Shown here piece after piece: positions 5,447-49,567 of a DNA stretch of 51,303 nt; within the stretch, counting starts at the first letter, position 1, and each line of letters begins with the position of its first letter. Made by a program: the position numbers and the translations under genes. Location: positions 1 to 51,303 of IMG/VR virus record IMGVR_UViG_3300050011_000546. One strand, written 5' to 3'. The notes under the pieces were generated by a model. That model was not told the origin of the DNA. It did not search any database and saw only the letters and a list, made by a program, of their open reading frames with translations. The DNA is from a virus (Duplodnaviria; Caudoviricetes).

Positions 5447-6676
5447 TCAACGCCGATAGAGCGGACTGAAGATCGACGGCACAAGCTGCGTGGGATGCTC
5501 AGGGTCGACGCCGGCCAGGGAGCGTATCCAATTGCCGATGCTGCCGCTGGCGAGTGGTGCGTAAGGATTCGAAGGGTCAAAGGGCGGCGGCGGCTTGGTC
5601 GGATCGAACATAGGCGCCTGCGGCTGGTTGCCGTTCAGCTGGCGCTGGTATTGATCGTATTCGTCGGCATAGGGAAGCGCCGAGCCCTGGGAGTTCTGCG
5701 GCTCAGGCGCCGGTGGAGCGGGAATATCGGTCGAACCGCTTGCCGGAGGAAAGCTCCCGCTTCCAAAGCGGTTGTCGAACGTCGCGGAATTATCCGAAAA
5801 ACCCCAGACCGGCGGATCGGTCCATGGCTGTACCGACCTGTCGCTATACTTCTCGAGCGTTCCGCCGGTTTGCGGCGGCTGCACGGATCGCAACGGATTG
5901 GAAGGGTCGATGCCGGCGAGCGGAAACCGCCAGTCCCCGACACCGAGGCCGTTTCCATCGCCGATCTGGCCTGCTGGGTACTGAGCCTGCGGCCGGTAAC
6001 CGAAGTCACTGATCGGCGATGCCCCGTTGCGCGCTACATCTGCGTTGGCATAACCCTTGGAAAAGTTGTCGTAGTTTTGCTGAGAAAGAAAATGAGGCCC
6101 GCTTGTATCAATTGAGTCCCACTTACCACTAGTCAAATATTTAAAGGGTTGTTTAATATAACGGTTTTCCAGGTTCGCCATTCCCCCACCGATCTCCGCC
6201 CACTCCCGTGGTATTCCGGACCAGCGGGTTACGGATCCTAGATGGTAGGAGGCACTACCAACAAACGCTGGAACGACAGAACCCTCCGGAATTCCCCACT
6301 GCGGGTTTCGCTGCAAATCTTGCGAACCGCCTTGGCTGAAAGCATCGATCATCTGCGCCCGCGCTCGCATCGATCCCATGATGCCCGTTGCATCTTTCGG
6401 ATAAACCTGGTTCAGGGTATTTGCGACATCGGCTGCGAAGGCCCGGGCTTGCTGCTCGGTGTAGTTAGCGGGAACGATGAGGTAATTATTTGGATTTGCG
6501 ATCTCTCCCCTCGTCTTATATTTGTCCGAACCATCAGCATAAATATACGCGTTCTGAGAACCACCCGGTGTCGGGTCGACGACAGGCTGACCGTTAAGCG
6601 TGATAAATTTGGCTGGGACATAACCCGTAAATTTTCGGTCTTTCTCGGAGCCAACATAAAATATTCGGTCTGACAT
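5447..6676 (-). CDS. Class A cargo: divergent Ntox44-like N-terminal domain plus IFSPLYRR tail
   Basis: GGSQDLQR...ASYHLG...SGIP domain; ends WIRSLAGVDPEHPTQLVPSIFSPLYRR. Confidence 0.65.
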   Translation of the reverse strand: MSDRIFYVGSEKDRKFTGYVPAKFITLNGQPVVDPTPGGSQNAYIYADGSDKYKTRGEIANPNNYLIVPANYTEQQARAFAADVANTLNQVYPKDATGIMGSMRARAQMIDAFSQGGSQDLQRNPQWGIPEGSVVPAFVGSASYHLGSVTRWSGIPREWAEIGGGMANLENRYIKQPFKYLTSGKWDSIDTSGPHFLSQQNYDNFSKGYANADVARNGASPISDFGYRPQAQYPAGQIGDGNGLGVGDWRFPLAGIDPSNPLRSVQPPQTGGTLEKYSDRSVQPWTDPPVWGFSDNSATFDNRFGSGSFPPASGSTDIPAPPAPEPQNSQGSALPYADEYDQYQRQLNGNQPQAPMFDPTKPPPPFDPSNPYAPLASGSIGNWIRSLAGVDPEHPTQLVPSIFSPLYRR

Positions 6677-6778
6677 TTTGTGTCCCCTCTCCTAAGAAAT
6701 AGCTGTAATGATAGTGGTGCTAATCGTCGAGCAATCAACGTTTAATAAATGCAATCTGCTTGGGATGAGAATTGTGGT

Positions 6779-7339
6779 TTAGCCGCCTTGCAATTCATCA
6801 ATGCGGACGCCGATGACGTAAAAGTCTCCGAAAATATGCGAGGCGCGGCCTTCAGATTCAATGTATACGTCGGGCGAAGAAAGCATCCCCATGGCGCTTT
6901 TCCAACCCTGCGTTCTCTGAGCTGGTGGTAAAACAAACTGCCCTGTTGTGTCGTAGATAACAGTGTCCCAGGTAATATCCGAAGTTGGAACGCCTTGGCA
7001 CTCACCGACCTGCTGCTTCTTGCCGTCTTCCACAAATGTGACCAGCCTGCATTGGGCCAGATACTTTTCGATTGGCGAGGCGTGGATACGAAATCCCGTC
7101 GATTGAAGCCATTGGCCTGGCTGGTGCAGCAAGATAATGACAAAGGCAACGCAAAAAATCGCGAGCGTATTCCACTTTCTTCTGATCAACGCCAACAGGG
7201 CGCAGACAAATAAGATGTTGATGCATCCAACGCAAACCAAGAACGACCAATCCGAAAAGCCGGGAACGTACATGAGCAGTTGGTGGGTCACCCAGCTTAC
7301 GAGCGTCGCCGCGACCAAAAGATATTTTAGCAACTTCAT
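6779..7339 (-). CDS. Putative membrane immunity protein, paralog 1 (YDTTG family)
   Basis: About 3 TM helices then CRLxxFVExG, YDTTG, GxFY; directly upstream of the class A cargo. Confidence 0.65.
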   Translation of the reverse strand: MKLLKYLLVAATLVSWVTHQLLMYVPGFSDWSFLVCVGCINILFVCALLALIRRKWNTLAIFCVAFVIILLHQPGQWLQSTGFRIHASPIEKYLAQCRLVTFVEDGKKQQVGECQGVPTSDITWDTVIYDTTGQFVLPPAQRTQGWKSAMGMLSSPDVYIESEGRASHIFGDFYVIGVRIDELQGG

Positions 7340-7535
7340 GGTGACCATCCAGCGAAAACCGACGACCGGGCCGTTACCACAAACAGGCGGTTTTCTGATT
7401 ATTGGTCGGCTCGTTGCATTCTTTTCTGCGTTCCGTGAGGACTTTTCGTGCACCTCCCCGTTACCTGTTGCAGATAATTTCAGGATATTTTGCGCGGGAG
7501 CGATGGGACCGGCGTGGCGCGCGCGTCAGCGCCGC

Positions 7536-7790
7536 GCATCCTACCATTTTGGCTATGTGACTCGTCTAGCCGGTGTACCAAGGGAGCTGGCGGAGCGGGG
7601 TGGAGGAGCATACAATTGGCTCAACGCTCATTTTTGGCAACCTCTGCAAGAATGGCACGAGAATGGTTCCCGTCTTGATTCGGTCCGAACCGTCAGCATA
7701 GATATAGGTATCCTGAGATACCTCCCGGTGTCGGGTCCACGACAGGCTTGCCGTTGATTGTGAGGAATTTTGCGGGCAACGCAATCTGCC
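7536..7790. pseudogene. Scrambled remnant of a paralog of the 5447-6676 toxin
   Basis: 7671-7790 matches 6512-6630 (YIYADGSD) in the same orientation; 7536-7665 encodes ASYHFGYVTRLAGVPRELAERGGG on the opposite strand. Confidence 0.75.
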
Positions 7791-7810
7791 AACAGCGAAG
7801 CTAGAGAGAC

Positions 7811-8395
7811 CTAGTGGGCGCTGTCCCCGTCAAATTCCGTTGCAAGAATGCCGACCCTGTAAAAATTTCCAGAAAGATGAATTGCGCGGTCTTCCGAGTC
7901 TCTGAGCACCCCTTTCGGAGGATAATGCCACATCGCGTCCTTCCACTCAGGTGTTCTCTCGCGCAAGGGCAAAACGAGCTCTCCCGTTGTATCGTAGAAT
8001 ACAACGTAAGAGACGAGGGCATCTCCGGAGTCTTCACAAACTCCGACCGTTTGCTTGACGTCCTTCTCAACAAATTCTGTCAATCGGCATCGGGCCAAAT
8101 ATTCTTGAATTGGCGAGGTATGGATGCGGAAGCCCAGTACATGAACCCAGTACAATTGCCTTGTAATTCCAAGATAGGGAAGAGAAACCACGAGCCACGC
8201 GGCAGCGAAAATCGCTAGTGCCCTCCATCGGAACCGAAACAAGGCGTCTACAGAAAAAAATAACAGAGGAATCCAACAGGCGAAGCCTATCCAGAGAAGC
8301 CAAACGAAAACAGTTGGAAGGAGGTAATAAAAAAAATGCGCGGCGTACTGACTTATCGGAGCGAAGAGGGCCAGGATATACTTTGGCGACGTCAT
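7811..8395 (-). CDS. Putative membrane immunity protein, paralog 2 (orphan)
   Basis: MTSPKYIL; CRLTEFVEK; FYDTTGEL; GNFY. Confidence 0.65.
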   Translation of the reverse strand: MTSPKYILALFAPISQYAAHFFYYLLPTVFVWLLWIGFACWIPLLFFSVDALFRFRWRALAIFAAAWLVVSLPYLGITRQLYWVHVLGFRIHTSPIQEYLARCRLTEFVEKDVKQTVGVCEDSGDALVSYVVFYDTTGELVLPLRERTPEWKDAMWHYPPKGVLRDSEDRAIHLSGNFYRVGILATEFDGDSAH

Positions 8396-9060
8396 GAGAG
8401 ACATCCAGCAAAACGGGGCCACTGGCTCGCTAGTACGAAGCAGGCTGCGCGAATTTTCTCCGTTCCATGAGGATTTTTCGTGCACTTACGACTACCTGTC
8501 GCCGGTAATTTCAGGATATTTTGTGCAGGCGCGATGGGACCGGCGTGGCGTGCGCCTCAGTGCCGCGTTCTTTGCGGCCAGTTCGATCAGCTTCCGTTAT
8601 GATTGGAGAATTCAAAGGCGCCAAATAGCGCTTTTCAATCGTAGCCAATTCTGCACCTCCTGGGCTCATTACTTTTTGTAGATATCGTCAAGCAAGCACG
8701 GTCGGGGCGACCGAAGACGCGCCCGGAATTGGTCCGGGATTATTGCAAGACTTGCCGCCAGTTCACGACTCTGTGGGTGTCTTCAAAGTCACTTCACGTC
8801 CAAAAACTGAAGATATAAAACGCCGAGCAATGGATTTTGAATAAATTCATTCCCCTTCCGTCTTCGTCCTTCGAAAACATGAAGCCGAATCAAGGAGTCT
8901 CTTGCATTGCGACGAACTGTGTGGTTGCCATCGAAGAAATAGCAGCAAGCTGGCCGTCCCTTATTTCCGTAGACGTGAACATGAACCTCGTCGGCTGTAG
9001 CGCTAATCGCCAAGCCATCATCGTTGCAGGCGGTGAAACCCCTGCGAACGGTGAAGAATA

Positions 9061-9642
9061 TTAGCCGCCGTCAAATTCGTCGTGATCAATGCTCACTCTG
9101 TAAAAATCCCCAGAAAGGCGCTCTGCGCGACCTTCCGAATCCCTTAGCACCTTTTTCGGAGAGTAATCATACATCGCGTCCTTCCACTCCGGCGTTCGCT
9201 GGGACACAGGTAATGCGATCTCTCCGGTCGTGTCATAGAATACGATATAAGCAGTGCTCTCATACACTACGCCCCAGTCTTCACATGAGCCGACTGTTTG
9301 TTTGACGCCCTTCTCTACAAACTCAGTCAACCGGCATCCGGACAGATACTCTTTCGCCGGGAATGCGTGGATGCGGAATCCCTGCCTACGAAGCCAGCTG
9401 AATGGCTCCGTGACTTCGAGAAAGGAGAGAGTAACCGCGACCCACGCGACGACAAAAATCGCTACCGCCTTCCATCGCCGCCGAAACAAGGCGCTCAAAG
9501 AGAAGAAAAACATCGGAAAGCAGCAGGCCAATCCTATCCACGGAAGCCGGGCTGCTAAGGTTGGCATAAGGTAAGTTAGAAATGCCGACGCATACCAACT
9601 CCCCGCGGCAAAAATAGCCAAAAGATACTTTGGTCGTGTCAT
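9061..9642 (-). CDS. Putative membrane immunity protein, paralog 3 (orphan)
   Basis: MTRPKYLL; CRLTEFVEKG; FYDTTGEI; GDFY. Confidence 0.65.
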   Translation of the reverse strand: MTRPKYLLAIFAAGSWYASAFLTYLMPTLAARLPWIGLACCFPMFFFSLSALFRRRWKAVAIFVVAWVAVTLSFLEVTEPFSWLRRQGFRIHAFPAKEYLSGCRLTEFVEKGVKQTVGSCEDWGVVYESTAYIVFYDTTGEIALPVSQRTPEWKDAMYDYSPKKVLRDSEGRAERLSGDFYRVSIDHDEFDGG

Positions 9643-9696: not shown

Positions 9697-10271
9697 TTAG
9701 CCGCCCTGATCTTCGTCAATGCGAATAACGATGGAGTAGAATTGTCCGACAATGTGCGATCCGCGCCCCTCGGATTCAGCGAACACCTTTGGCGAAGAAA
9801 GCATTCCCATGGCGTTCTTCCACGCTTGTGTTCTCCGCGCCAGCGGCAACATAAACTGTCCCGTCGTATCGTAGATCACGACCTCCCAGGTGATGCCCGA
9901 TGTCGCAAGGCCTTGGCATTCGCCGACCTGCTGCTGCGCGCCGTCTTCCACAAACGTGATAAGTCTGCATCTGGATAGATATTCTTCAATTGGCCAAGCG
10001 TGTAAGTGAAATCCTGTCGCAACAAGCCATCGACTTGGCTGTGTGACGCCCAATCCAGGAAGACAAATGACCAGCAGGGTGAGAGAAAAGATTGCGAACG
10101 TATTCCACTTTTTCTAAACAACGCCGATAGGGCACAGACAAGCACCGCAAAGCTGCATCCAAATCCGAAATAAAAAGACCACTCTGAATAACCTGGAACA
10201 TATTCCAACAGGAGTTCGGCAACCCAGCTAACGAGCGTGACGGCGACCAAAAGATATTTTAGAAACCTCAT
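9697..10271 (-). pseudogene. Immunity paralog 4, frameshifted
   Basis: MRFLKYLL start and YDTTG C-terminal half lie in different frames; shift near 10110. Confidence 0.7.
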
Positions 10272-10469
10272 TGCAAGCATCCAGCAAGGGCTGACGATCG
10301 AGCTGTTACCACAGGCAGGAAGCTTTCCGATTATTGGGCCGCCGGTCGCATCCCTTTTCTCCGTTCCGTGAGGACTTTTCGTGCGCCTCCTGGGTACCTG
10401 TTGCAGATAATTTCAAGATATTTTGTGCAGGCGCGATGGGACCGGCGTGGCGTGCGCGTCAGCGCCGCG

Positions 10470-11437: not shown

Positions 11438-12622
11438 CTACCCTTTTGCATTGGCGCGCCGCTGTGCGGCGAGCAAGGCCTGCGCGTCCCTGAGACTGCC
11501 GGTGCGGTCGAGTTTCGCGGTCAGCGCGCTGATGGTGGCCGCATTGGCGGATGTCCGGGAGGCAGCGACGCCGGGCCGCTGCACCGGCGGCACATCCCTG
11601 GCCGCGGCTTTCGACGCGGTCTTCTGCGCCAGCCGGTATTTTCCGGCGTCGTACATCATCTTTTGAAAATGGGCATTGCGCATCAGGGGATCGCTGTGGA
11701 ACAGCCGCATGAACTCGGCACGTTCGACACCGGCCTCTCTGGCGCCGGCCATAATTTCATTCGCCACCGCACGCTGGGTCTGTTTGCTTTCGCCCTTCAG
11801 CATGGTGTCGAGACGCACGTCTTCCGCTTTTGCAAAGCTTTCGAATTGCTGCCGGGCCGCCGCGGTCTGGTGCTGCTGCTGCTGTTGCTGCGCCGCCTGC
11901 AGCTGCGCCACCCGATCGAGCGCCGCCATCGCCTTGCTAAATCGCTCCGGTTGCCGCTGCGCCATCATCTCGAGCGCCGGCTGCAATTGCTGCAGCGGCA
12001 CCCCGGCAAGCTCCGGAAAGTTTTCCAGGAAACTGGCGCGGGCAAAATCATGGGCGACGCCAAGCGCCTCGGCGTAGGATTTTCGCGTGGTCTCCGCGGC
12101 GCCGAGGCGCTGTTCGATGGCCTGGACCACCTGCGGATGCTTCAGTGCTTCCTCGAGTTTCGAGTCGAATTTGCCATTCGCGGCGGTTTCCGCCGCGGGC
12201 TTTTCGTTCGCATCCCGTGCTGGTTTGGCTTCCGGCTTGGCCGGGTCGTTTTCCGGATCGTCCGCGTCATTCTTCGGGATGTGATTGCCGCGCAGCCTGT
12301 CCAGCTCATCCCTGAATTGCGCAGCGGCCTCTTCGCGCGCCGCGTCGCTCTCATCGTTGCGCAACGCCGTCAGATCGCGCGCACCGCGTTCCAGCGTGAT
12401 GGCTTCGGCGCCATCGGCCGCCTCGTCATCTCGGTCGACATAATTCCGCGCGATCGTCGGCGCCGGCTCGCCGCGTTGGGCGCTTAATTCAGCAGCGGCG
12501 TCCCGCGCGCGCTCAAACCCGCTTTCCTTCTTTTTAGCGAGCGGGTCCGGCATCTCGGCGAAGCCGCCGCTTGCGAGATCGGCGGCGCGGCCGGTCGGAA
12601 TGTTTTCATCGGCTTCCGTCAT
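11438..12622 (-). CDS. Scaffolding-protein-like protein
   Basis: Acidic N-terminus, long helical coiled coil, C-terminal PPVQRPGVA...ISALTAKLDRTGSLRDAQALLAAQRR. Confidence 0.6.
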   Translation of the reverse strand: MTEADENIPTGRAADLASGGFAEMPDPLAKKKESGFERARDAAAELSAQRGEPAPTIARNYVDRDDEAADGAEAITLERGARDLTALRNDESDAAREEAAAQFRDELDRLRGNHIPKNDADDPENDPAKPEAKPARDANEKPAAETAANGKFDSKLEEALKHPQVVQAIEQRLGAAETTRKSYAEALGVAHDFARASFLENFPELAGVPLQQLQPALEMMAQRQPERFSKAMAALDRVAQLQAAQQQQQQHQTAAARQQFESFAKAEDVRLDTMLKGESKQTQRAVANEIMAGAREAGVERAEFMRLFHSDPLMRNAHFQKMMYDAGKYRLAQKTASKAAARDVPPVQRPGVAASRTSANAATISALTAKLDRTGSLRDAQALLAAQRRANAKG

Positions 12623-12813
12623 AGGCGTCTCCCGACCAGCCGTCGCAACGGCTTTTTCGCTGCCGACGCATCAATCATTGCAGGATACCGATATTTGTCC
12701 AGGTTCAATGAAGCTGCGATTTCGTTCACCTTCGCCTGCTGCTGTTCCGGCGAGAGCTTCAGAAAGCTGTCGTCAACGGTGACGGTCTGGCCATCGATTT
12801 CAAGCGTTGCCAT
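12619..12813 (-). CDS. Small protein resembling the N-terminus of a large virion ejection protein
   Basis: MATLEIDGQTVTVDDSFLKLSPEQQQAKVNEIAASL; ends RRLVGRRL. Confidence 0.5.
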   Translation of the reverse strand: MATLEIDGQTVTVDDSFLKLSPEQQQAKVNEIAASLNLDKYRYPAMIDASAAKKPLRRLVGRRL

Positions 12814-13619
12814 TATTTGATGCTCCAGGGTGGGACACTAGGTTTGAGGCTCCAGGGCACGTTGACTCTGGTCCTGCGCGAGACAGTGGCCGGCGGTAGC
12901 GCGGCATAACCGGGCGGCCTACCATTGGCCGACTGGCGCGCCAGCGCTTGCGCCATCAGTGGATTTCCAGCCAGGGGATCGGTCGCCGCGCTGGTAGCAT
13001 CCTGATCGCCGCCGAGAATGGATTTCAGTGCTGCGAACCGGGCTTGCGAAATTTGCGACGGATCGGTGGTCCGCTGTCCCGAGCCAAGACCGGTAATGCC
13101 GTTGGCAATCGCGGCTATGGGGTTACCGACCGGCGTATGGGCCCAGTTTTGAAAGCCGGCACTCAAGCGGTCGCCGATAGCCGGTGTTGGTGAAGGCGTT
13201 TGCGGGGGCGCAACACCAGCAGGATCGGTGCGCTGTCCCGAGCCAAGGCCGGCAATGCCATTGGCAATCGCCGCCATGGGATTACCGACCGGGGTATGGG
13301 CCCAGTTTTGCAAGCCGGCGCTCAGGCGATCACCAAGATCCGGCGTTTGCTGCACCGGCTGCGGAACATCCGCCCTTCCGAATTGCGGCATCTGATAGCC
13401 GCCGACAGCGATGTTTTGCGTCTGCCCGTAGTCCGGCGTCTGCGGAAGTGAGGGCGTTGTTGCGGTCAAGGGTGTCTGCGGAACGGAGGGTGTCTGATCA
13501 AATCCCGGACCCGGCTGATACTGCCCTTGCTCCTGCTGCAGCGAGAGCAACCGGCCAAGCAAGCCGCCGCTCTGGTCCGAAAAAGTCTGCGGATCAAAAT
13601 AGCTGTCGAAGAGACCCAT
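12813..13619 (-). CDS. Class C protein (MGLFD/GGLLGRL), internal-virion-like, with an internal tandem repeat
   Basis: N-terminus nearly identical to 14339-15217; two copies of GDRLSAGxQNWAHTPVGNPxAAIANGIxGLGSGQRT. Confidence 0.6.
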   Translation of the reverse strand: MGLFDSYFDPQTFSDQSGGLLGRLLSLQQEQGQYQPGPGFDQTPSVPQTPLTATTPSLPQTPDYGQTQNIAVGGYQMPQFGRADVPQPVQQTPDLGDRLSAGLQNWAHTPVGNPMAAIANGIAGLGSGQRTDPAGVAPPQTPSPTPAIGDRLSAGFQNWAHTPVGNPIAAIANGITGLGSGQRTTDPSQISQARFAALKSILGGDQDATSAATDPLAGNPLMAQALARQSANGRPPGYAALPPATVSRRTRVNVPWSLKPSVPPWSIK

Positions 13620-14051: not shown

Positions 14052-14339
14052 CTAGTCTGAGTGTGAAGAATATGTCTCTGTCTTGGCAATGATCTCATTG
14101 ACGGCACGGTCAACGGCCAACTTTCCCTTCGCTTCGAAATCGTAATCCGCCATGAAAGTGTGCGCATTGGCGTATTCAAGAGCAAATAAAGCATCAGCAA
14201 GCTCGCGGCTCAAGGCGGTGTCCTCTATGACAGCCAAAAGACCCTCAACCTTATGAATGAGCGTCTGCAGGGACATAAGGCCGTCCTGATAATCCCTGGC
14301 CGCGCCCGTGATAAGACTAATTTGATAAGCTACGTCCAT
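14052..14339 (-). CDS. Putative cognate immunity protein (cytoplasmic, acidic, helical)
   Basis: Start overlaps the stop of the toxin-bearing ORF; lower GC. Confidence 0.65.
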   Translation of the reverse strand: MDVAYQISLITGAARDYQDGLMSLQTLIHKVEGLLAVIEDTALSRELADALFALEYANAHTFMADYDFEAKGKLAVDRAVNEIIAKTETYSSHSD

Positions 14340-17238: not shown

Positions 17239-17379
17239 GTGTTTGCTCTCCAATAGGTCTATCGTTTGACGTGCAGCTCGTTTGATTAGGTTGCTTTGAT
17301 TCAATTCTTCGAGCTCTGTGCGACGAGCAGTATTGCTCCAGGATTCGTGCCCGCGAAGCCTCAGGCGCTTGAGAGCCCA

Positions 17380-40951: not shown

Positions 40952-41155
40952 CGGGTGAGGTCTCGGTTTGAAGGAGATTTAGGTTTCAGACACTCGTCAT
41001 TCCGGGGCGCGGGCGGCGCGAACCCGGAATCTCAAGATCCGTGGCTGGGCTTTATGAGCCGTCCGGGATGATGCCCCTGGCTCTGTTATGCACAGCGCAA
41101 AGCCAAGGTTCTCGTTGCCCGACCAAAATCAGGCGCCACGCCATTCAAGATTGGA

Positions 41156-41975
41156 TCAGCGCCTATAAAGCGGACTGAAGATCGGCGGCACCTGAAATTC
41201 GGTGGGATTCTCAGGCTCTACGCCCGCCAGGGAAGCGATCCATTTATTGATGTTGCCGTAGGCCGAAGCGTAGTTTGACAGTGTGAAGGGCGGCGGCGGT
41301 TTGGCAGGATCAAAAACGTACGCCGGCGAATTGTCGGCGTTGGATGGCGACGGTGTCGGCGCTGCAGGCGCGGATGCCGGACCATCGGGGGCCGCCGAGT
41401 TCCTGTATTTCTCCAGCGCACGCAAGAGCGCAGAATCGGCATCGTCCAAACTACCTGCCGGTTAGGTATTCACTCGTGCCGCTCCAAACGGAATTTCCTG
41501 CCAACGGATGGGGTGAGGTCTCAAGACTAGGATCGTAACTAACGACTACTTCGTGAGACGGTTCTTTCGTAGAGCGCACTGCGTCAAAATGGGCCTTTTC
41601 ATTCGGCCCCAAATCGATACATCCAGCTGATCCCGGGGTAAAGCCGCCGTGGATGAAGAAGTTTTTTCGACCATTGGTCGACGTTGAATCCGGCACAAGC
41701 GCTGCGCGTTCCGTGCCCCAAGCAGCCATCGATCCCGGAAACCGCCCATGCTTCGGTACCAACCCTGCCACCGCATCAAACGTAGTTAGAGGCTGGATGT
41801 CATCTGTCGAAAAAGAATATCTTCCTTCGGTAAGCGGTCCCCTGAACGGCAAATTCTGATCGCTAGGCCTTTGATTTCTACTCCTGCCCGAGATGGCTGG
41901 CCAAGATCCCACAATCGAGCCATCAGGACGATAGAGCGTCAGGGAGTATCCATCAAAAACGCTTCGATCAGCCAT
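41156..41975 (-). pseudogene. Class A cargo with Tlde1/DUF2778 L,D-transpeptidase-like domain; tail disconnected
   Basis: WG.ERAAL.P...GRKNFFIHGGFTPGSAGCIDL; stop at 41451 separates it from the IFSPLYRR tail (41156-41449). Confidence 0.75.
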
Positions 41976-41995
41976 CGTTTGTTCTACCACTCGGG

Positions 41996-42334
41996 TTAGC
42001 AATAACTCATATCAAAAAATGACAGCAACGGTTCACCAAGCAACCAGGCAGCCCAGGCAATCAAGTAGACAAGCAAATAGTTTCGTTGCGCGAGCCAATA
42101 TAAGCCCAGCAGCACGGCTATATCCACGCAGATTAACGTGAGATGAGTGAATAGGTATCGCTCAAAACTTCCGTACATCCAGCAATATTCAACGCCTCTT
42201 TCGCCAATGAACTCACGCGTCGCGTTCAAAGTTAAGAGAAGAACCATCGCGCCTAGACCAACCAAAGCAGCCGCGGCATAAATTGGATAGAACATCCATC
42301 GCTGGCGAGACGTAGATATGTTTTTGTTGGACAT
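41996..42334 (-). CDS. 3-TM membrane protein, candidate immunity for the Tlde1-like cargo
   Basis: Hydrophobic; directly upstream of the cargo and downstream of a 24-bp motif. Confidence 0.55.
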   Translation of the reverse strand: MSNKNISTSRQRWMFYPIYAAAALVGLGAMVLLLTLNATREFIGERGVEYCWMYGSFERYLFTHLTLICVDIAVLLGLYWLAQRNYLLVYLIAWAAWLLGEPLLSFFDMSYC

Positions 42335-42517
42335 GGGCTCGACCAGGACCTGAAATACATATTACGCCAACTGTGCTCGTTGGAAGAACAAGACTACGTC
42401 AATTCTTGCCATGCTGCAGGAACGTTGCGTGTAGCTCCTATTATTTATCGCGGATAATTTCAGGATATTTTGTGCAGTTTCCTCCCCGCGGTTGCGACTA
42501 CGTCGCGCTGGATCGGA

Positions 42518-43546
42518 TCAGCGCCGATAGAACGGACTGAAGATCGGTGGCGGCGAAAACTCCGTGGGGTCGTCGGGATCGATGCCTGTCAAAGAAGCTA
42601 TCCATTTATCAATGTTGCTGAGCGCCGAAGCGTAGTTTGACGGCGTGAAGGCCGGCGGCGGCTTGGTCGGATCGAATACGAGTGCTGGCGAATTATCGGG
42701 GCTGGATGGCGCGAGCGTTGGCTCCGCTGCAACAGACGCCGGATCAGGAACCGCTGATCTCCTGTACTTCTCCAGCGCACGCAAGAGCGGAGAATTGGCA
42801 TCGCTGGCGCCGCTTGCGGGAGCGGAGCCCCAGTTTCCGAAGCGGTTGTCAAACGATTCGGGACGATCGGAGGGGGCTGGCGCGGAAATGCCTACCGGAG
42901 CGGAGCCCCATTTTTCAAAGCGATCGCCGAACGAATTTTGACGATCGGGAGAAAGAACATCATTATGCGGAACGAACGGCACGGCGGGCGCTCTTGCCAC
43001 GTCCGGTGCGTTACCAAATCCGTTGCCTGCATTGACGCCGAGACCCTGCAAGTATTGTTGGTATTCTTGAAGATAAGCCGGCGGACTTGGATTGGGGTCG
43101 ACGGGGCCTTGTCGATCCCAGAAGGCGGTTGGATTTACTATATTTCCTGCAGGATCCTTCAATTGATAGTGAACGTGTTGTTGCTCGGTGCCGGTGTTGC
43201 CCATCGTACCGATCAACTGGCCTGCGGCAACCGGGTCGCCTGCCGTCAGAAACTGAGTATGGGTATGCAATATTTCGTGAGAAAAGCCATTCTTGTCCCG
43301 TATGGCTATTCTTCCAAAAGTGCCCTCTCCCGGTTTTGTTGTCACGATTCCGGAGACTGGCGAGCGCAGCGCCGGGTGCGTGAGATTGATTCCCGTCGGT
43401 CCAACCGAATAGTTGAAATCTACGCCGCCGTGAGGAATCGATGAGGGCGGCGTTCTACCCTTTACCGCTCCATACGGACTGGTGATTTCGGGCGAAACGC
43501 CGCCGATCGGAGGCAACACTCGCCGCATGATGCCTTTCCACGACAT
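42518..43546 (-). CDS. Class A cargo with M23 metallopeptidase domain
   Basis: ITSPYG, HGGVD (HxxxD), GQLIGTMGNTG, HVHY (HxH); ends PPIFSPFYRR; no signal peptide. Confidence 0.85.
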   Translation of the reverse strand: MSWKGIMRRVLPPIGGVSPEITSPYGAVKGRTPPSSIPHGGVDFNYSVGPTGINLTHPALRSPVSGIVTTKPGEGTFGRIAIRDKNGFSHEILHTHTQFLTAGDPVAAGQLIGTMGNTGTEQQHVHYQLKDPAGNIVNPTAFWDRQGPVDPNPSPPAYLQEYQQYLQGLGVNAGNGFGNAPDVARAPAVPFVPHNDVLSPDRQNSFGDRFEKWGSAPVGISAPAPSDRPESFDNRFGNWGSAPASGASDANSPLLRALEKYRRSAVPDPASVAAEPTLAPSSPDNSPALVFDPTKPPPAFTPSNYASALSNIDKWIASLTGIDPDDPTEFSPPPIFSPFYRR

Positions 43547-43849
43547 TTCTGATCTCCTTTGTGCGTGACTTTCTGCAATGACGCAGAATGCTGCCGCGTT
43601 AAATCGATTTCCTGTGCCAAATTATCGCGGCCACCGAGCGCGAGGTATCGGCGCGTTTGAGTGATCGATATTGCACGGCCTCAATCTTGGGCACCCCCTC
43701 GGCGGGCACTCAACCAAAAACTGATAAAGTTTTATTCGTTGGAAATTGCGGTCATCCCGGCATAAACCGTAAGCTGCCAGCGATCGGCTATTAGTCTAAT
43801 TGAATTACAAACCGAAGGGCCGTCGCATCGTCATGTTTATCAACGAGTG

Positions 43850-44536
43850 TTACGTCGACCGATCGGATATACCGTAGAGAAACCAGCAACCTTGCGTCTT
43901 CCGAAAACTATAGAATACTATCACTCCAGTGTCCGGCAACGTTACTAAAACAGTCACGCGTGAGGGGTCGGTTATCGTCTCTTCCGGAAAAACGTTTTCA
44001 CCGGTCTTGGAGTTTTTGATCGTCGTAATTTCGGTTCTAAGTCCCTGTTTTTTCATCTGCAACAAAGTCGGATAAACCGTGCCACTCTTCGGATAATAGT
44101 TTGGTATCTTTTCGAACTTGTTGACCATGCTCGACTTGAAAGCGTCGTTTTCCTTGTCCGCGCCGATTAGACTCACGTCTAAAAGTCCGAATTCGAGCGG
44201 CAGGTGCGTGTATTTCCGTTGCAACACGGGGCTATTTGAAAAGGCGCGCAAGAATAGGGTAAAATCCGCAGACGGACATTTATCGCTCTTGCCTGCTACC
44301 GTGACGTTTGGCGTCGCAGGACGTCCATCCGGATCTGCCAAGGCGGGACCAGATACGGACACCATCCCGGCAAGGAGGAGCGACCTGAAGCCGTAGCCCA
44401 ACCCGGTTGTCGATCCGATACAGCCCGAGGTAGCCTTCAGGATACTTATTATGACAGCAAAATCTGCTCGAACCCGCGGCCGAGCGCACGGCACCTCGCC
44501 GATATACTGCAAACCATTCAGCAGATTCTCGCCCAT
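43850..44536 (-). CDS. Exported protein, candidate M23 immunity (DUF4348-like; start uncertain)
   Basis: ALA signal cleavage; CPSADFTLFLRAFS...YSFRKTQGCWFL. Confidence 0.6.
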   Translation of the reverse strand: MGENLLNGLQYIGEVPCARPRVRADFAVIISILKATSGCIGSTTGLGYGFRSLLLAGMVSVSGPALADPDGRPATPNVTVAGKSDKCPSADFTLFLRAFSNSPVLQRKYTHLPLEFGLLDVSLIGADKENDAFKSSMVNKFEKIPNYYPKSGTVYPTLLQMKKQGLRTEITTIKNSKTGENVFPEETITDPSRVTVLVTLPDTGVIVFYSFRKTQGCWFLYGISDRST

Positions 44537-44767
44537 AAATCACCCACCCGACGGGAGAAGCTTTTCAGTACGACATAGCCGTGCATACTAGAAAATCTTG
44601 TGTTAGGTGTAAATTGAAGAAATACAGCAAGCTCTCTGTGGGTAGGCTGTTAGAGGCTTGAAATGGCCGCCGTAAGGCGCATTTTCGTCCAGCTGATTTT
44701 TTGAGTCATTTGAACCTATCGAAGAATATTGCCCCGTTGTGACGACCTGATAGCGAACAATATCCCC

Positions 44768-46054
44768 TCACACCCACCCCTGCTCCGCATACCGGATCGC
44801 CCGGTTGAAATTTCCCGCCCGGCCCGGCTCCTCATAACAAATCGCCATCAGACCCAGCGCGTCGGCGGCGTGGCTGGACCAATCGTGCTCCGGCCCAAGC
44901 CCGACGTTGCGGGTCTCGTCCTTGCGTTCGTGATAGAAGCCGATGGCGTCGCGGCCCGGTTCGGTGGTTTCCTCGTTCCACCAGATCTGCGCGCCCAGCC
45001 GGCGCAGCGCCTCGATGCGCATCATCGCGGCGCCCTTGCCCTGGTTCCTCACCGGCGGCTCGACCCTGAAGCCGGCTTCGCGCAGATGATCTTCATAGCG
45101 CTTGCCGGTGATGTTGTTTTCGTTGACGCCGTCATGCGGCAGGTGGACGATGACATCGTGATAGCCGCGCGAGCGCAACCAATTGACGTGAAACGCCAGC
45201 ACCTGGCCGACCGCCTCGTAGTAATCGAGCACGCGGATTTCCTGCCCCACCCATTGCACGATCCAGATCGTGAAGGCATCGGCAAAAGCGCCGGCGCCGC
45301 CGATGTCGACAAAGGCGCGCAGCGGCAACAGCGGATCGGCGGTGACTTTGCCGATCCGGCCCTTGGCTCGCGCCTCCGACAGCATCGCTGCAAAATATGC
45401 GCCCTCGAAGGCGCTGACGTAGTCGCCCTCCCATATGTGGTCGTAGCGATCGGGATAGAGCTGCAGATCGGTTTTGCGTTCGTCTTCCAGCACGGAAGGA
45501 AACCACGGATTGTCGCGCCAGTTGGCCTTGACGACGATCGATCCCTGCGGCTCGCGCCGCCGGAAAAAATCGTCAATCGCATCGCTCTTCCGTCGGGGAT
45601 TCCAGCTCGCCCACAGCTCTGATTGGTTGGCGCGGATGGTGGGGCGAAGCAGCGAGAGACTGCGTGCGCTCAAGGTTTGCGCTTCATCGACCCAGGCGAT
45701 CCGAAAGCCCTCCAGCGACTTGATCGACTCCGAAGTGTGATCCTGCATGCCGCGAAAGATGATCATGCCGTCGCCGGGCGTTTCGATCCGGTCGGCGAAA
45801 CTCTTGAAGCGGTGGCCGAGGCCGAGTGAACCGATCTTGCTCTCGATCAGCCGCTTGGAGGATTGCGCCAGTGTCTTCTGCGCCTCGCGAATGCAAACCG
45901 CCAGCATGCCCTTCTCGGCCTGGCAGGCCTCAACCAGCATCTCTCCGAAAAAATGCGACTTGCCTGAACCGCGTCCCCCCCAAGCCCCTTTGTAGCGCGA
46001 TGGCTGCAGCAGCGGTTCAAAGATCTTGGCTGTCGGGATTTTCAGGGTGGACAA
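44768..46054 (-). CDS. terL: Terminase large subunit (PBSX-like)
   Basis: Walker A GGRGSGKS, Walker B AWVDEA, SWNP, nuclease DIG...D and HDWSSHAADA; TTG start. Confidence 0.93.
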   Translation of the reverse strand: MSTLKIPTAKIFEPLLQPSRYKGAWGGRGSGKSHFFGEMLVEACQAEKGMLAVCIREAQKTLAQSSKRLIESKIGSLGLGHRFKSFADRIETPGDGMIIFRGMQDHTSESIKSLEGFRIAWVDEAQTLSARSLSLLRPTIRANQSELWASWNPRRKSDAIDDFFRRREPQGSIVVKANWRDNPWFPSVLEDERKTDLQLYPDRYDHIWEGDYVSAFEGAYFAAMLSEARAKGRIGKVTADPLLPLRAFVDIGGAGAFADAFTIWIVQWVGQEIRVLDYYEAVGQVLAFHVNWLRSRGYHDVIVHLPHDGVNENNITGKRYEDHLREAGFRVEPPVRNQGKGAAMMRIEALRRLGAQIWWNEETTEPGRDAIGFYHERKDETRNVGLGPEHDWSSHAADALGLMAICYEEPGRAGNFNRAIRYAEQGWV

Positions 46055-46550
46055 TGACGCGCTCGATTCTGTAGGCCACCTCCGCGTCCATTCAGCGCCG
46101 ATAGAGCGGACTGAAGACCGGCGGCACCTGAAACCGCGTGGGATCGTCGGGGTCGACGCTTGCCAGCGAAGCGATCCATTTTTCGATGCTGCCGTTGCCG
46201 GTTGCGGAAGAATAGTCAGGAGGAGCGAACATCGGCAGCACGGACTGGTATGGATTTGGTGCGTTGATGCCCGGAGAGGATGCAGGTGCTTGCGATTGGT
46301 CGGCGGTTAGCTGGTTCAGGTATTGAAGAAACATCTTGCTGTAGGAAGGCGCCGAATCCTGGGATTGCTGCGGAGTGTCCCCTGCCTCGGTTGAAGCCCA
46401 GTTTCCGAAGCGGTCGCCGAACGACTCCCCACGATCGGAAACGAGAAAACCGTTGGACGGAGATGGCGCTGCCGGTGCGCCGCTATCGAATGCGGATGTT
46501 CGCGGATCGTCGACGATTTGCCCGACCAAACGTCGCACTGGCAGTGGAGG
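46030..46550. repeat. ~520-bp direct repeat (cargo tail plus terS/terL junction); second copy at about 47865-48380
   Basis: Near-identical nucleotide sequence in both copies. Confidence 0.85.
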
Positions 46551-47174
46551 CTGACCGGGGGCGCGAACTCCGTCAGGCGCAACCGACCCGCTCAAAGGGA
46601 AAGGCATCGGCGTCGCGGTGTTGATAGGATTTGCTAACTGCTTTTCAAAACCAGGGACGTAGAAGGACCGGGTTTCGCCACTAACGGGATCGAACACCAG
46701 CTGACGATCAAATCTTTCCGGAAACCTGGTTCCCGGCCCAAAAAATCCCGCACGTTGCAGCGCCCCACCCGCAAAAGAGTTACTGTTTTGAGAGACCGGA
46801 CGATATTCATATCCGGTCGAATTCACCTCGTCGGCAAAGTCTTTCATCAGCGCCCAGCGGGAACTCAAATCATCGCCTTCGGCGACCATCGTATGCGTTT
46901 GATTCAGAGGAACATCGATATCTTCACCTGGCAAGGCTCGCAATCGCTGAAACGGCGAATCTCGATTGTTCGCGCCGTCTGAAAATATCTCTTCACGAAC
47001 AAATGCCCCCAGTTTATCGATATTGTGATCAAACTTGGTTTCCGGCACGCCCTGAAGCGTGTGGTGATAACCATCGGAGTCGACATAGTTCAGTACAATA
47101 TGATGCCCAAGCACAGAGCCTTGGTAAGGTACAGCGGTCGCATTGGCGTAGGTAAGAAAAATTCTTTCAGGCAT
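46092..47174 (-). CDS. Class A cargo with permuted papain-like (H...QNSNSF) domain
   Basis: GHHIVLNY ... YEYRPVSQNSNSF; ends VPPVFSPLYRR. Confidence 0.6.
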   Translation of the reverse strand: MPERIFLTYANATAVPYQGSVLGHHIVLNYVDSDGYHHTLQGVPETKFDHNIDKLGAFVREEIFSDGANNRDSPFQRLRALPGEDIDVPLNQTHTMVAEGDDLSSRWALMKDFADEVNSTGYEYRPVSQNSNSFAGGALQRAGFFGPGTRFPERFDRQLVFDPVSGETRSFYVPGFEKQLANPINTATPMPFPLSGSVAPDGVRAPGQPPLPVRRLVGQIVDDPRTSAFDSGAPAAPSPSNGFLVSDRGESFGDRFGNWASTEAGDTPQQSQDSAPSYSKMFLQYLNQLTADQSQAPASSPGINAPNPYQSVLPMFAPPDYSSATGNGSIEKWIASLASVDPDDPTRFQVPPVFSPLYRR

Positions 47175-47186
47175 CTGGTAAATCCG

Positions 47187-47693
47187 CTACTTGTGGACCC
47201 ATCCGGCAGTGTAGATGTCGGGGCCCGCCTTTTTCTTGGAAACGTTGTATGTAAAGCCAACCAACACGTCATCGCTTGAGAAATGTATTAAATACTCTGT
47301 CGTGCGAGGCATATAAGATATTGAACGAATAAAATTCGATTTTCTGACCGCGTCCAGCAAGGCATCCACCTCACAATCCCGAAACGGGAAATATTTTTCA
47401 TTGAGATCATTATACGGAGTGATCCAATTTCTCTCTTTCGAAAGTAATTGGTCAAGTTCGGCGACATACGAAGAAACCTTCGCAATACACGAAGCGGAAT
47501 CGGCGCGGGCGCTCGGTGCTTGCGCCAAACACAAAAAGATCACACTAGCCGCTGCGACGCGACGTAGTCTTCGCTGCCTTCCCGTGGAAGCACGCATTTT
47601 TTCTTCTATGGAGATTTTGGTCATTTGAGCCATCGAAACGACGACGAAAACGGCGATCGAACCGTCACCACGAGTAGAAAGCTCGCCGATCAT
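47187..47693 (-). CDS. Exported protein, candidate immunity (start uncertain)
   Basis: Signal peptide ending ARA-DS; two Cys; upstream of the cargo. Confidence 0.6.
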   Translation of the reverse strand: MIGELSTRGDGSIAVFVVVSMAQMTKISIEEKMRASTGRQRRLRRVAAASVIFLCLAQAPSARADSASCIAKVSSYVAELDQLLSKERNWITPYNDLNEKYFPFRDCEVDALLDAVRKSNFIRSISYMPRTTEYLIHFSSDDVLVGFTYNVSKKKAGPDIYTAGWVHK

Positions 47694-47719
47694 CCGGTCC
47701 TCGCGAGCGCTTTTCGTGA

Positions 47720-47905
47720 AGCTCCCTGTTATTTATCGCCAATGATTTCAGGATTTTTTGTGCAGTCCCGCCGCACGGCTGCCACATCGCCCAATCGGAT
47801 CCGCGCCTATAGAGCGGACTGAAGATCGGCGGCACCGGAAACCGCGGGGGCTCGGAAATTTTAGCTGTCGGGATTCTCAGGGTGGACAATGACGCGCTCG
47901 ATTCT
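47720..47905. repeat. terS/terL junction, PLYR remnant and 24-bp motif; second copy at about 50910-51100
   Basis: Near-identical ~190-bp blocks. Confidence 0.85.
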
Positions 47906-47926
47906 GTAGGTCACCTCCGCGTCCAT

Positions 47927-49567
47927 TCAACGCCGATAGAGCGGACTGAAGACCGGCGGCACCTGAAACTGCGTGGGATCGTCGGGATCGACGCCTGCCA
48001 GCGAAGCGATCCATTTGTCGATGCTGCCGTTGCCGGTTGCGGAAGAGTAATCAGGCGGAGCGACGATTGGCGGAACAGACTGATATGGATTCGGGGCGTT
48101 GATGCCCGGAGAGGATGCAGGTGCTTGCGGCTGGCCGGCGGTCAGCTGGTTCAGATATTGACGAAACATCTCGCTGTAGGAAGGCGCCGAATCCTGGGAT
48201 TGCTGCGGAGTGTCCCCTGTCTCGGTTGAAGCCCAGTTTCCGAAGCGGTCGCCGAACGAATCCCCACGATCGGAAACTGGAAACCCGTTAGATGGCGCTA
48301 CCGGCGCGCCGCTCTCGAATGCGGACGTTCGCGAGTCATCGACGATTCGCCCGACCAGACGTCGCACTGGCAGTGGAGGCGGAGATCCATCCGCATCTGT
48401 CGTCGCGCTGCCGTACAGAGGCGGCGACGGGGATGCGGCCTGTGCGGAGGGGATCAGGCTATTCTCAATGTAACCCCCGGCGCCGCCCAGTAACCGTGCG
48501 GCCCGGCTTCTGGCAGCATACAGTCCGTCGGCGAGCTGAGAACCAAAGCCGGGCTCGGACGCGTTGGACGGTACGAGCGACGGCGCTGCGGCAACGGACG
48601 ATAGGCCGTCGGGAGCCTCCGATCGCCTGTATTTCTCCAGCGCACGCAGGAGCGGTGAATCCGTATCGCCGGAGTCGCCTGCCGGGACAGAGCCCCAGTT
48701 TCCGAAGCGGCTGTCGAACGTTCCGGAACTATCTGTTGACCCCCCGATTAGCGGCGAAGTAATCGCGCTATTTCCTATGATCCGCTCGAGCTCGCGGTTA
48801 CGAACCATCGAGGACAACCAGCCATCAGGCCCTGGGGATGGTACGATTTTATCCAATGCCTGCGGAAAGGACCCTGCGTGGGGATCGGCGTTCGTGGGAT
48901 CGGTAAATCCGACTGAGGGTGTGATGTTCCCGATAGTTGTCGATGCGACCAACCGACGAATGTCGCCGTTAAACGAACGGCCGAACGCAGTTTTAAATTG
49001 GTCGCCCGACGCGAATGCCTGACTTCCCTGAAGCGAATTACCCGGAACAGTCGCTGGCGGTCCATATGTAGAATCAAAATAATCCCGAACGCCCTTTGCG
49101 ATGAACGGAGGGTTTTTTGGATTGCTGCCGAAGTTCGGGCCGGCCGTCTTGGGGTTGACCAACATATTATATCCACCGGCGGCGGCCATAAGGGTGGTCG
49201 GCGAAAAGCCCGCGGCAGCTCCAATAAGACCGTAGGCGTAGGAAGCCGCTGGCGCGAATAAGCTCGCGAAGAGAGCATTCGACTGTCCATTATAGTTACG
49301 TTGGAGATCCCATGGACCTCCGTCCTTAACATTGCGACCAAAATCTAGGAAGGCGGCCGCAGTCGATTTAGAAGCGAGCGACTTGCCGAAGGCAATCGCG
49401 GCGGCCGGATCGAACGTTACCGGAAACCATATCTTGTTTCCTTGGGAGTCTACGACGTCATTGCCGAATCGGTCGACGATCGTCTTTGCCTGAACATTAA
49501 AAATTCGCGTTCTTTCGTTGGGTTCATCGGTGAGCCGCTGGGTAAAGGTTCGGAATTCCTGGGTCAT
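47927..49567 (-). CDS. Class A cargo with Ntox44-like domain
   Basis: NVKDGGPWDLQR...ASYAYGLIGAAAGF...FGSNPKN...IAKG; ends VPPVFSPLYRR. Confidence 0.7.
   Translation of the reverse strand: MTQEFRTFTQRLTDEPNERTRIFNVQAKTIVDRFGNDVVDSQGNKIWFPVTFDPAAAIAFGKSLASKSTAAAFLDFGRNVKDGGPWDLQRNYNGQSNALFASLFAPAASYAYGLIGAAAGFSPTTLMAAAGGYNMLVNPKTAGPNFGSNPKNPPFIAKGVRDYFDSTYGPPATVPGNSLQGSQAFASGDQFKTAFGRSFNGDIRRLVASTTIGNITPSVGFTDPTNADPHAGSFPQALDKIVPSPGPDGWLSSMVRNRELERIIGNSAITSPLIGGSTDSSGTFDSRFGNWGSVPAGDSGDTDSPLLRALEKYRRSEAPDGLSSVAAAPSLVPSNASEPGFGSQLADGLYAARSRAARLLGGAGGYIENSLIPSAQAASPSPPLYGSATTDADGSPPPLPVRRLVGRIVDDSRTSAFESGAPVAPSNGFPVSDRGDSFGDRFGNWASTETGDTPQQSQDSAPSYSEMFRQYLNQLTAGQPQAPASSPGINAPNPYQSVPPIVAPPDYSSATGNGSIDKWIASLAGVDPDDPTQFQVPPVFSPLYRR

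Follow-up and report, generated by a model that had tools for sequence, protein, structure and literature searches.

The window analysed in this work, a 51,303-base provirus record from IMG/VR (IMGVR_UViG_3300050011_000546) with nearly all of its long open reading frames (ORFs) on the minus strand, contains the late region of an SU10-like short-tailed phage, as recognised by Pfam and PHROG scans, together with five minus-strand ORFs, named here by their left-hand coordinates (5447, 41156, 42518, 46092 and 47927), all of which finish in the same short peptide, I.KWIxSLxGxDPxxPT..PP(I/V)FSP(L/F)YRR. The best explanation for these ORFs is a polymorphic toxin family private to a podophage-derived chromosomal island of Bradyrhizobium, with the C-terminal tail best seen as the trafficking module of this new family, tied to the island.

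The tail, which had been noticed in a preliminary description made from the sequence alone, is present at all five positions: 16 columns are invariant over the last 50 residues, with a mean column identity of 76%, and a profile of the tail recovers the five copies at E 1.3e-34 to 5.9e-30, with one weak internal match in the protein P0001 (hereafter P-numbers denote library proteins, L-numbers portal or remnant loci and G-numbers Bradyrhizobium genomes). The shared linker blocks listed in that description were all located as well, namely F..RFGNW in the linkers of the 42518, 46092 and 47927 ORFs, LLRALEKYR in 41156, 42518 and 47927, FDP.KPPP in 5447, 41156 and 42518, and PVRRLVG in 46092 and 47927. 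The polarity is indeed reversed compared to the usual polymorphic toxins, with the swapped toxin domain being N-terminal and the conserved tail C-terminal.

The 546-aa protein encoded at 47927-49567 consists of an Ntox44-like domain (aa 76-163), a long linker with two copies of FGNW as well as LLRALEKYR and PVRRLVG, and the tail. The N-domain of the 409-aa protein (5447-6676) belongs to the same Ntox44-like cluster by single linkage and is followed by an internal tail relic and a type-1 linker and tail. The 342-aa protein (42518-43546) possesses an M23 peptidase domain (aa 59-139), a linker and a tail ending in FSPFYRR, and the 360-aa protein (46092-47174) has an N-domain with a QNSNSFA motif and no Pfam match. 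The 41156 ORF, first taken for a complete tailed protein, turned out to hold only a linker and a tail (41156-41449, minus strand, 97 aa), being part of a gene whose Tlde1/YkuD-like N-domain is encoded by a separate minus-strand ORF of 183 aa (41451-42002) with a one-base frame offset between the two. Contigs of three out of three public runs are identical to the window over 40300-42400, though these runs may include the source sample, and an intact fusion of a Tlde1-like domain with the tail exists in the protein library (P0006, 371 aa). Only the M23 (42518; E 1.5e-11) and Ntox44 (47927; E 7.6e-6) domains passed the Pfam cut-offs, with the Tlde1/YkuD-like ORF reaching 26.4 bits, under the cut-off of 30.1 bits. 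PHROGs matched the M23 protein and offered no family for the 5447, 46092 and 47927 proteins or the Tlde1-like ORF. The earlier statement that the N-terminal parts are enzymes of four unrelated families therefore holds with respect to the families (M23, Ntox44-like twice, Tlde1-like and unmatched), because the 5447 and 47927 N-domains share one cluster, whereas enzymatic nature is shown for M23 only.

As for the unmatched N-domain of 46092, its profile gave no matches at E ≤ 1 against PDB sequences, and a fold search with its AlphaFold2 (AF2) model (mean predicted local distance difference test score, pLDDT, 60.7) found nothing at E ≤ 1e-3. The weak top matches (E 0.1-2.6) are of the permuted NlpC/P60, LRAT and PPPDE type (Aichivirus 2A, CLN5, TseH, PLAAT4, DeSI), folds which the modelled domain may faintly resemble. 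The AF2 model of the M23 protein puts nearly all of its linker (aa 169-287) below pLDDT 50, and the tail (aa 290-342) scores best, with 53-76 per 10-residue block and helices at 302-309 and 312-320.

Directly upstream of each toxin there is a gene, also on the minus strand, coding for a membrane or secreted-looking protein, as the preliminary description had suggested in placing an immunity candidate there; the immunity role itself is putative and deduced from these sequence features. The candidates are a 208-aa membrane protein with three hydrophobic 19-mers (49564-50190) upstream of the 47927 toxin, a 168-aa protein (47187-47693) upstream of 46092, a 228-aa protein (43850-44536) upstream of the M23 toxin, a 112-aa protein with three hydrophobic 19-mers (41996-42334) upstream of the Tlde1-like ORF, and a 224-aa membrane protein (6779-7453) upstream of 5447, the last having orphan paralogues at 7811-8485, 9061-9642 and 9876-10280. 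Three of the five contain at least two hydrophobic 19-mers, and the remaining two (168 and 228 aa) have, by eye, signal-peptide-like N-termini. None of the five matches Pfam or PHROG. No hydrophobic 19-mer was found in any of the five toxins, which, together with the membrane-like upstream partners, fits toxins attacking the envelope from outside. The tail itself is covered by no Pfam or NCBIfam model, with 10 proteins' tails included in the NCBIfam scan. The thought that it might be a sorting signal of the PEP-CTERM type was dropped, given the toxins without a hydrophobic 19-mer and the lack of an NCBIfam match.

Two further toxin-related arrangements were seen in related loci. At the island edge in L172 (11113-13762) an AHH nuclease is paired with Imm11, the Imm11 gene coming first and the N-terminal AHH protein second, so that the polarity is again reversed, and in L170 (13816-15731) an Ivy-like lysozyme inhibitor lies beside a 413-aa ORF.

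The strict form of the tail gave 31 matches at E ≤ 1e-3 and 17 at E ≤ 1e-10 among 1.84 billion representative proteins and is also found in two other viral contigs (L009 and L010/L070); two peptide patterns had no confirmed match in 185,579 species genomes, and TBLASTN with the strict tail found nothing in 50,697 phage records. The strict tail belongs, as one subtype, to a larger family with a constant core, GGLxxWIAxLAGIDPxxPxQ..PP, and exchangeable endings, namely PPIFSPLYRR, GGLLGLYLSGRR, LRGFYRDDPAWFLQLRR, WPPxxDxPIRYLGRR, GGLLGLIQDYMRN..., PxRRLVGR, QRLLPPWVFFGSR and a scaffold-like ending. The core motif is conserved at the protein level across the subtypes despite diverged DNA. With a wider family profile, A5, built from 42 tails, tailed ORFs were found in 20 of the 61 unique portal loci having at least 5 kb on each side. 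In portal loci the tailed ORFs, 48 in total, without exception have the orientation of the portal gene, with 15 located between the genes for the terminase large subunit (TerL) and the portal, 16 between those for portal and major capsid protein (MCP), and the other 17 up- or downstream of the portal gene with TerL or MCP out of view. The 67 tailed proteins form 20 N-domain clusters, and Pfam (E ≤ 1e-3) names only ten of the proteins: eight M23, one Ntox44 and one Tlde1. The tag may accordingly serve as a route to new antibacterial domains, since for 57 of the 67 proteins the N-domain is not known to Pfam. Polymorphic toxins combine a single conserved trafficking part with a variety of unrelated toxin domains, as found here, and the catalogue of N-terminal domains and neighbourhoods proposed in the preliminary description, once made with the tail profile, bore out its picture of swapped domains and showed a head-gene neighbourhood.

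Among 401 Bradyrhizobium genomes, tails are present in 38 (one of them, G021, unpublished), the portal in 60 and both in 15. In all of these 15, as read from two tables, the tail lies within 7 kb of the portal gene on the same contig, and in the 8.5 Mb of isolate genome G005 all three tail matches are inside the element. The tail was found only in this phage lineage and its remnants.

In the window the TerL gene (44768-46054, minus strand) has tailed-toxin modules on either side. The other late genes code for an SU10-type portal in two minus-strand ORFs (40376-40951 and 38697-40376), an SU10-type MCP (29511-30473, minus strand), an adaptor (27782-28432), a virion structural protein (23777-25252), fibres (15217-16287 and 4017-5006) and a scaffold-like protein of 394 aa (11438-12622, minus strand). 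Among isolated phages, Bradyrhizobium phage ppBeUSDA76-2 comes closest (MCP identity 73%); it is described as a podovirus-like temperate phage produced spontaneously (bioRxiv 10.1101/2022.05.06.490963). Portal relatives were found in 57 loci of the species-genome collection, for the most part under Bradyrhizobium or Xanthobacteraceae titles, as well as in 279 viral stretches, 80 of which were kept.

The portal is split into parts of ~190 and ~560 aa in the window (38697-40951) and in the same manner in ppBeUSDA76-2, where the second part is unannotated; the same split is listed for L149 (19031-21243), and in L019 and L024 cargo genes spanning 2.5-5.5 kb separate the two halves. The window has a HicA/HicB-like pair and a transposase-like fragment (31252-32343 and 30692-31246, read by eye) between its portal-side genes and its MCP gene. 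This is where the scaffold gene is located in ppBeUSDA76-2; in the window the scaffold-like gene is far off (11438-12622).

Portal-bearing elements occupy the same Bradyrhizobium locus as the capsid-less remnants described below. The entire element measures 25 kb between two host genes in G004 and 16.9 kb in G001, and in G005, G002 and G003 an acyl-CoA-dehydrogenase-like flank lies 28-36 kb past the portal gene; the GNAT gene at the left end of the window shares 77% identity with the GNAT gene adjoining this flank. The 20 kb upstream of the loci in G005, G002 and G003 hold host genes or more toxin pairs (AHH with Imm11; Ivy-like inhibitor) and no homologues of the integrase, ERF or YqaJ of ppBeUSDA76-2, and none of the 10 ORFs scanned from these stretches has a Pfam integrase or replication domain. 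Since the locus is fixed, host genes or toxin pairs lie beyond it, and integrase or replication genes were not found there, the relatives resemble a late region that has been domesticated more than they do a free phage. The window is presumably such a region too; its record stops at the small terminase-like gene, after which the relatives have host genes or more toxin pairs within a few kb.

There are 23 tail-bearing genomes without a portal match, and the loci of 20 of them, leaving aside G021, G115 and G237, were examined as remnants. The same two host genes flank 14 and 13 of the 20, respectively. The small terminase-like gene is retained in 17, and TerL mostly in truncated form only. In eight remnants an in-frame fusion joins TerL residues 1-105 to the 70 C-terminal residues of the scaffold-like protein (L153 11196-11714, with equivalents in L154, L155, L158, L159, L161, L163 and L167), and in L150, L157 and L164 the same TerL fragment ends in a hydrophobic helix instead. 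On the 3′ side of the fusion there is a small conserved gene and then a full-length fibre gene, after which an endolysin gene, a holin-like gene and the GNAT gene come in the remnants compared. The ratio of nonsynonymous to synonymous substitution rates (dN/dS) is ~0.09 at dS ~0.9 for the fusion and 0.09-0.19 for the fusion, fibre, endolysin and GNAT genes in seven remnants (endolysin 0.098, fibre 0.19), with the host flanking genes having values of 0.04-0.08. The dS of the element genes, 0.89-1.45, compares with 0.76-0.78 for the host flanks, with positive rank correlations between pairs that are not independent. The remnants are not decaying, and the fixed locus together with co-divergence with the host, both found here, is characteristic of gene transfer agents (GTAs).

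The cassettes show traces of recombination. Seven near-identical copies of the last ~45 nt of the tail are present in the window, two of them not ending a long ORF: an orphan copy of the final 17 tail codons at 47803-47853 (minus strand; profile E 6.9e-6), preceded by the copied 3′ end of the small gene 51001-51303 and read as a recombination scar, and a second at 50997-51047 (minus strand; profile E 1.6e-6), which overlaps ORF 51001-51303 at its 3′ end in a different frame, so that both orphan tail ends come after the duplicated 3′ end of this gene. There is also a fragment of the 46092-type toxin domain at 50262-50423. In the 5447 protein, aa 241-268 are an internal relic of a second tail core (GDWRFPLAGIDPSNP) belonging to another tail type, and because this relic precedes the type-1 linker and tail, the tail of this protein was replaced. 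Orphan cassettes and recombination at a conserved junction, as seen here, are features of polymorphic toxin systems. For seven type-1 tails dN/dS is ~0.25 both in the core and in the ending, which argues that the tail peptide is selected and is not a mere DNA handle; dS is 0.23 in the ending versus 0.57 in the core. All five window toxins have the same ending irrespective of the N-domain: the tag tracks the element, not the toxin.

A repeat of 42-63 nt, reading CTGCACAAAATATCCTGAAATTAT... on the minus strand, is located directly upstream of immunity-toxin modules in nine copies (plus-strand starts 7443, 8474, 10376, 10600, 16352, 42436, 47711, 50244 and 50904). As a sigma-70 promoter and terminator scan of 41100-51303 gave the same counts as shuffled sequences (6 versus 6.0 and 13 versus 12.4), the repeat is no consensus promoter and may be an element-specific promoter or operator. 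A look for RNA evidence over 41156-49567 gave no record.

A possible role of the tail is suggested by one of its sister endings. The scaffold-like protein of the window was recognised by PHROG 3927 (E 4e-5) and by a homologous gene just upstream of the MCP gene in ppBeUSDA76-2, to the end of which its C-terminal ~70 aa are homologous. The last ~35 residues of the tails of L165, L082, L021 and L025 are homologous to the same scaffold-like C-terminus (pairwise E 3e-11 to 3e-8 against the L153 fusion), a link which was found via the L153 fusion protein with composition adjustment off; the C-terminus of the window scaffold itself matches the L153 fusion at E 1.3e-17 and L165 at E 0.003. Scaffold C-termini bind coat protein in P22-like phages, and by analogy the scaffold C-terminus of this SU10-like element would do the same.

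With this in mind, the tailed proteins can be pictured as having three parts: an exchangeable N-terminal toxin domain (M23, Tlde1-like, Ntox44-like or one of many unassigned folds), a linker of 120-250 residues, probably disordered and built from reusable short motifs, and a C-terminal address module of ~35 residues, whose short amphipathic helix (WIAxLAG) leads through a DPxxP turn to an ending that is specific to the element and closes with an arginine (here PPIFSPLYRR). The address module would dock the toxin to the particle-assembly machinery of the island, most likely in the procapsid interior, as a scaffold C-terminus binds there. The toxin would then exit the producer with the particle at lysis and arrive at the envelope of a rival cell during ejection, with siblings putatively protected by the membrane or periplasmic protein encoded directly upstream. 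Loading into the particle head is the single most likely mechanism, put forward tentatively, and is favoured because it explains the head-module position, the scaffold-derived ending and the one-tag-per-element pattern.

Several observations weigh against it. The phage ppBeUSDA76-2 forms virions and yet contains none of these motifs or cargo genes, with TerL running directly into the portal gene, so the tag is dispensable for assembly. The window FSPLYRR ending has no homology to a capsid-related protein, such homology being confined to the scaffold-type ending, and when the C-terminus of the window scaffold was compared directly with the L025 tail by BLASTP, no alignment was obtained. Portal, MCP and adaptor matches are absent from all 20 remnant loci, and an SU10-type MCP or portal is missing altogether from five remnant genomes, of which three have megabase contigs, in a genome-wide search which, as a control, recovered the MCP in four of five portal-bearing genomes. 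Despite that, many tailed toxins of the remnants are long open frames of 304-550 aa, and the remnant tails show dN/dS of 0.22 (six sequences) and 0.34 (five sequences) at dS 0.5-0.8, with core and ending invariant, which suggests that the tag stays useful without the element's own capsid. A complex prediction with monomeric MCP and the last 50 residues of the M23 protein, scoring 0.15 with the mark at 0.32, speaks neither for nor against binding.

The proposal of the preliminary description that the tail is a capsid-loading signal is thus supported by the head-gene neighbourhood and the scaffold-like sister endings and is at odds with tails under selection in genomes lacking capsid and portal genes; likewise, mimicry of a scaffold C-terminus applies to the sister subtype (L165, L082, L021 and L025) and finds no match in the window ending. 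It had also been stated that tails in genomes without the phage cluster would speak against loading. Genomes without capsid and portal genes do carry tails, but their loci are remnants of the same element and not unrelated DNA, and capsid loading is therefore only weakened. Loading into the capsids of helper phages is a possible explanation of the tag in the remnants.

A broader scenario, which we consider conceivable though doubtful, takes the remnants into account. The island would be a podovirus late region, inherited vertically and converted into an agent of toxin delivery, in which C-terminal peptides, some of them scaffold copies, address toxins to particles that inject them into rival strains, while a stripped version, consisting of the tag, the fibre, the lysis genes and the TerL-scaffold fusion, would still export toxins without capsid, portal or tail. 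If it does so, the reader of the tag would be a component other than the capsid, and the export route would be a new one made from phage packaging parts.

The main rival to head loading, albeit rather unlikely, is that the tailed proteins are particle-independent bacteriocins released by lysis through the holin-endolysin cassette of the island, with the linker motifs and the tail acting as a receptor-binding and translocation module, in the manner of a reversed colicin or S-pyocin. The capsid-less remnants, which retain intact tailed toxins along with the endolysin, the holin-like gene and the tail fibre, all under purifying selection and with a dS like that of the host flanks, agree well with this, as do the toxins without signal peptides next to membrane or secreted-looking partners and the single tail common to several toxins per element, which is reminiscent of colicins sharing uptake domains. 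Such bacteriocins, however, leave unexplained why the genes are positioned within the TerL-portal-MCP module, even between the portal ORFs and always co-oriented, why one of the endings copies the C-terminus of the scaffold-like protein, and why the small terminase-like gene and the fusion of TerL(1-105) to the C-terminal 70 aa of the scaffold-like protein, with its dN/dS of 0.09, have been retained. No known uptake box was identified in the tailed proteins either, and the tail has no Pfam or NCBIfam model.

Alternatively, the tail could dock the toxin to a protein retained by every island derivative, foremost the tail fibre (4017-5006), or else the small terminase-like protein or the N-terminal TerL fragment, with the complex of fibre and toxin being either on the outside of the particle or free. 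The fibre is full length in at least seven remnants devoid of a phage tail that could carry it, with 58-63% identity over aa 1-329 and a dN/dS of 0.19, and a tailed toxin gene lies a few genes upstream of it both in the window (5447-6676, then 4017-5006) and in the remnants. Against this stand the long flexible linkers, which would be unusual for fibre-borne enzymes, and the fact that the tail endings differ between two positions within one remnant, while neither sequence nor structure gives a sign of contact between fibre and toxin, and we consider docking of this kind improbable.

A C-terminal signal for a type I or type IV secretion system of the host is highly improbable. X-Tfe effectors of the Xanthomonas type IV secretion system carry their recognition domain (XVIPCD) at the C-terminus and have the immunity gene upstream, and the tailed proteins would resemble them in the C-terminal position of the signal, its basic end, the unstructured region before it, the N-terminal toxin and the upstream immunity candidate. 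Nevertheless, the tails were found only within the phage-derived island or its remnants and belong to no Pfam or NCBIfam family, and a vertically kept island relying on a sporadic secretion system seems unlikely.

Even less is to be expected from the idea that the tailed proteins and the TerL-scaffold fusion are decoys which enter or jam the capsids of infecting related phages as a defence by assembly interference: the scaffold-like endings and the conserved fusion do resemble possible dominant-negative parts, and true phages of the lineage circulate in Bradyrhizobium, but the membrane or secreted partners and the peptidoglycan-directed domains (M23, Tlde1-like) mark interbacterial toxins, and an AHH nuclease with Imm11 occurs in the same island (L172). 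Finally, that the conserved 3′ end is a DNA-level recombination handle only, encoding a peptide with no function, is already disfavoured and can hardly be right, since, for all the near-identity of its last ~45 nt in seven copies, two of them not ending a long ORF, and the low dS of the ending, the synonymous changes exceed those expected under pure DNA constraint, the dN/dS values (~0.25 for the window type, 0.22-0.34 in the remnants) indicate selection on the peptide, and subtypes with diverged DNA still share the core motif as protein.

Apart from the tailed proteins, the window contains other proteins built on reusable motifs. A second toxin class with a conserved N-terminal tag (MPDYSLVPVDYQPDF...) is encoded at 38372-38860, 35901-36575 and 33899-34585. 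Genes of this class begin within the 3′ end of the portal gene, and the extra copies each bring a duplicated portal 3′ end (repeat D4: 34453, 36443 and 38620); the N-terminal motif was found in 41 portal loci and in none of the 20 remnants. A third motif, GGLLGRLxALQ, is encoded among the tail genes (12813-13619, 14339-15217, 16512-17093, 19801-21222 and 22053-22595), being N-terminal in two proteins (MGLFDxYFDP...GGLLGRL) and internal in the three others, and is not present in ppBeUSDA76-2. A two-gene module coding for a GGLLGRL-motif protein and a protein of ~300-330 aa with a signal-peptide-like N-terminus is duplicated among the tail genes (16512-18282 and 22053-23728; repeats D9 and D16).

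Should loading into the podophage head be true, the tail would represent the first C-terminal signal of natural origin for loading exchangeable cargo into heads, and it would give experimental footing to the capsid-packaging secretion route, a genomics-based prediction of 2012 (PMC3482391) for which there is little direct evidence. A portable tag of 35 residues would also be a practical handle for loading chosen proteins into phage particles, provided that it loads. For rhizobial ecology, the data point to a widespread and seemingly undescribed strain-competition system in soil and nodule bacteria (tails in 38 and the portal element in 60 of the 401 genomes), and the capsid-less remnants under purifying selection sharpen the question of the tag reader. 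No description of the tag or the island was found in the literature, with the reservation that the supplementary toxin lists of two papers (PMC3482391, PMC5576092) could hold members.

The closest known systems are the MuF-type polymorphic toxins of temperate phages (see also Jamet et al. 2017, PMC5576092), which are encoded as toxin-immunity cassettes beside terminase, portal and capsid genes and predicted to be packaged into heads and delivered to other bacteria (Zhang et al. 2012, PMC3482391). The tailed toxins likewise adjoin terminase, portal and capsid genes and have exchangeable toxin domains on one conserved trafficking part. Unlike in the MuF type, this part is a C-terminal peptide of ~35 residues and not a folded N-terminal domain, the polarity is the opposite, and so is the immunity gene's position; a MuF (SPP1 gp7-like) domain was detected in none of the five window proteins (Pfam, E ≤ 0.1) and none of the 67 tailed proteins (E ≤ 1e-3).

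Proteins carried in the head of podophages provide another comparison. The ejection proteins of podophages are released from the head through the tail into the envelope, and SU10 has five of them (gp20-24) inside its head, one being a peptidoglycan hydrolase (PMC9509320). Such proteins are essential, single-copy and have no immunity partner, in contrast to the tailed proteins, which are polymorphic, dispensable (absent from ppBeUSDA76-2) and paired with immunity candidates.

The island resembles GTAs and tailocins in that no integrase or replication genes were found with the late region of its relatives, which occupies one chromosomal locus across many species with a dS like that of the host flanks. 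It differs from them in being podovirus-derived, loaded with toxin cassettes and often cut down to a capsid-less core. Colicins and S-pyocins are modular toxins that are released by lysis and come with immunity genes, uptake modules common to several toxins, and unstructured regions containing short binding boxes; in the tailed proteins the toxin domain is N-terminal, so that the module order is reversed, no Tol or Ton box was identified, and the genes lie amid phage head genes.

With regard to the address itself, the cargo-loading peptide of encapsulin systems is a short C-terminal stretch which follows a flexible linker and brings unrelated enzymes inside an HK97-fold shell, and the sister endings GGLLGLYLSGRR resemble what we take to be the consensus of such peptides. 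Unlike in encapsulin cargo, the shell gene here is that of an SU10-type MCP accompanied by portal and terminase genes, with no adjacent encapsulin shell gene, and the tag persists in loci without a shell gene. The scaffold of phage P22 binds coat protein through a basic C-terminal helix-turn-helix which other proteins can borrow, and CpmB of Staphylococcus aureus pathogenicity islands (SaPIs) copies the end of the 80alpha scaffold. The tailed proteins differ from these scaffold mimics in that the borrowers are toxins and that the window FSPLYRR ending is not scaffold-homologous, and they resemble them in that the tails of one sister subtype show homology to the C-terminus of the element's own scaffold-like protein.

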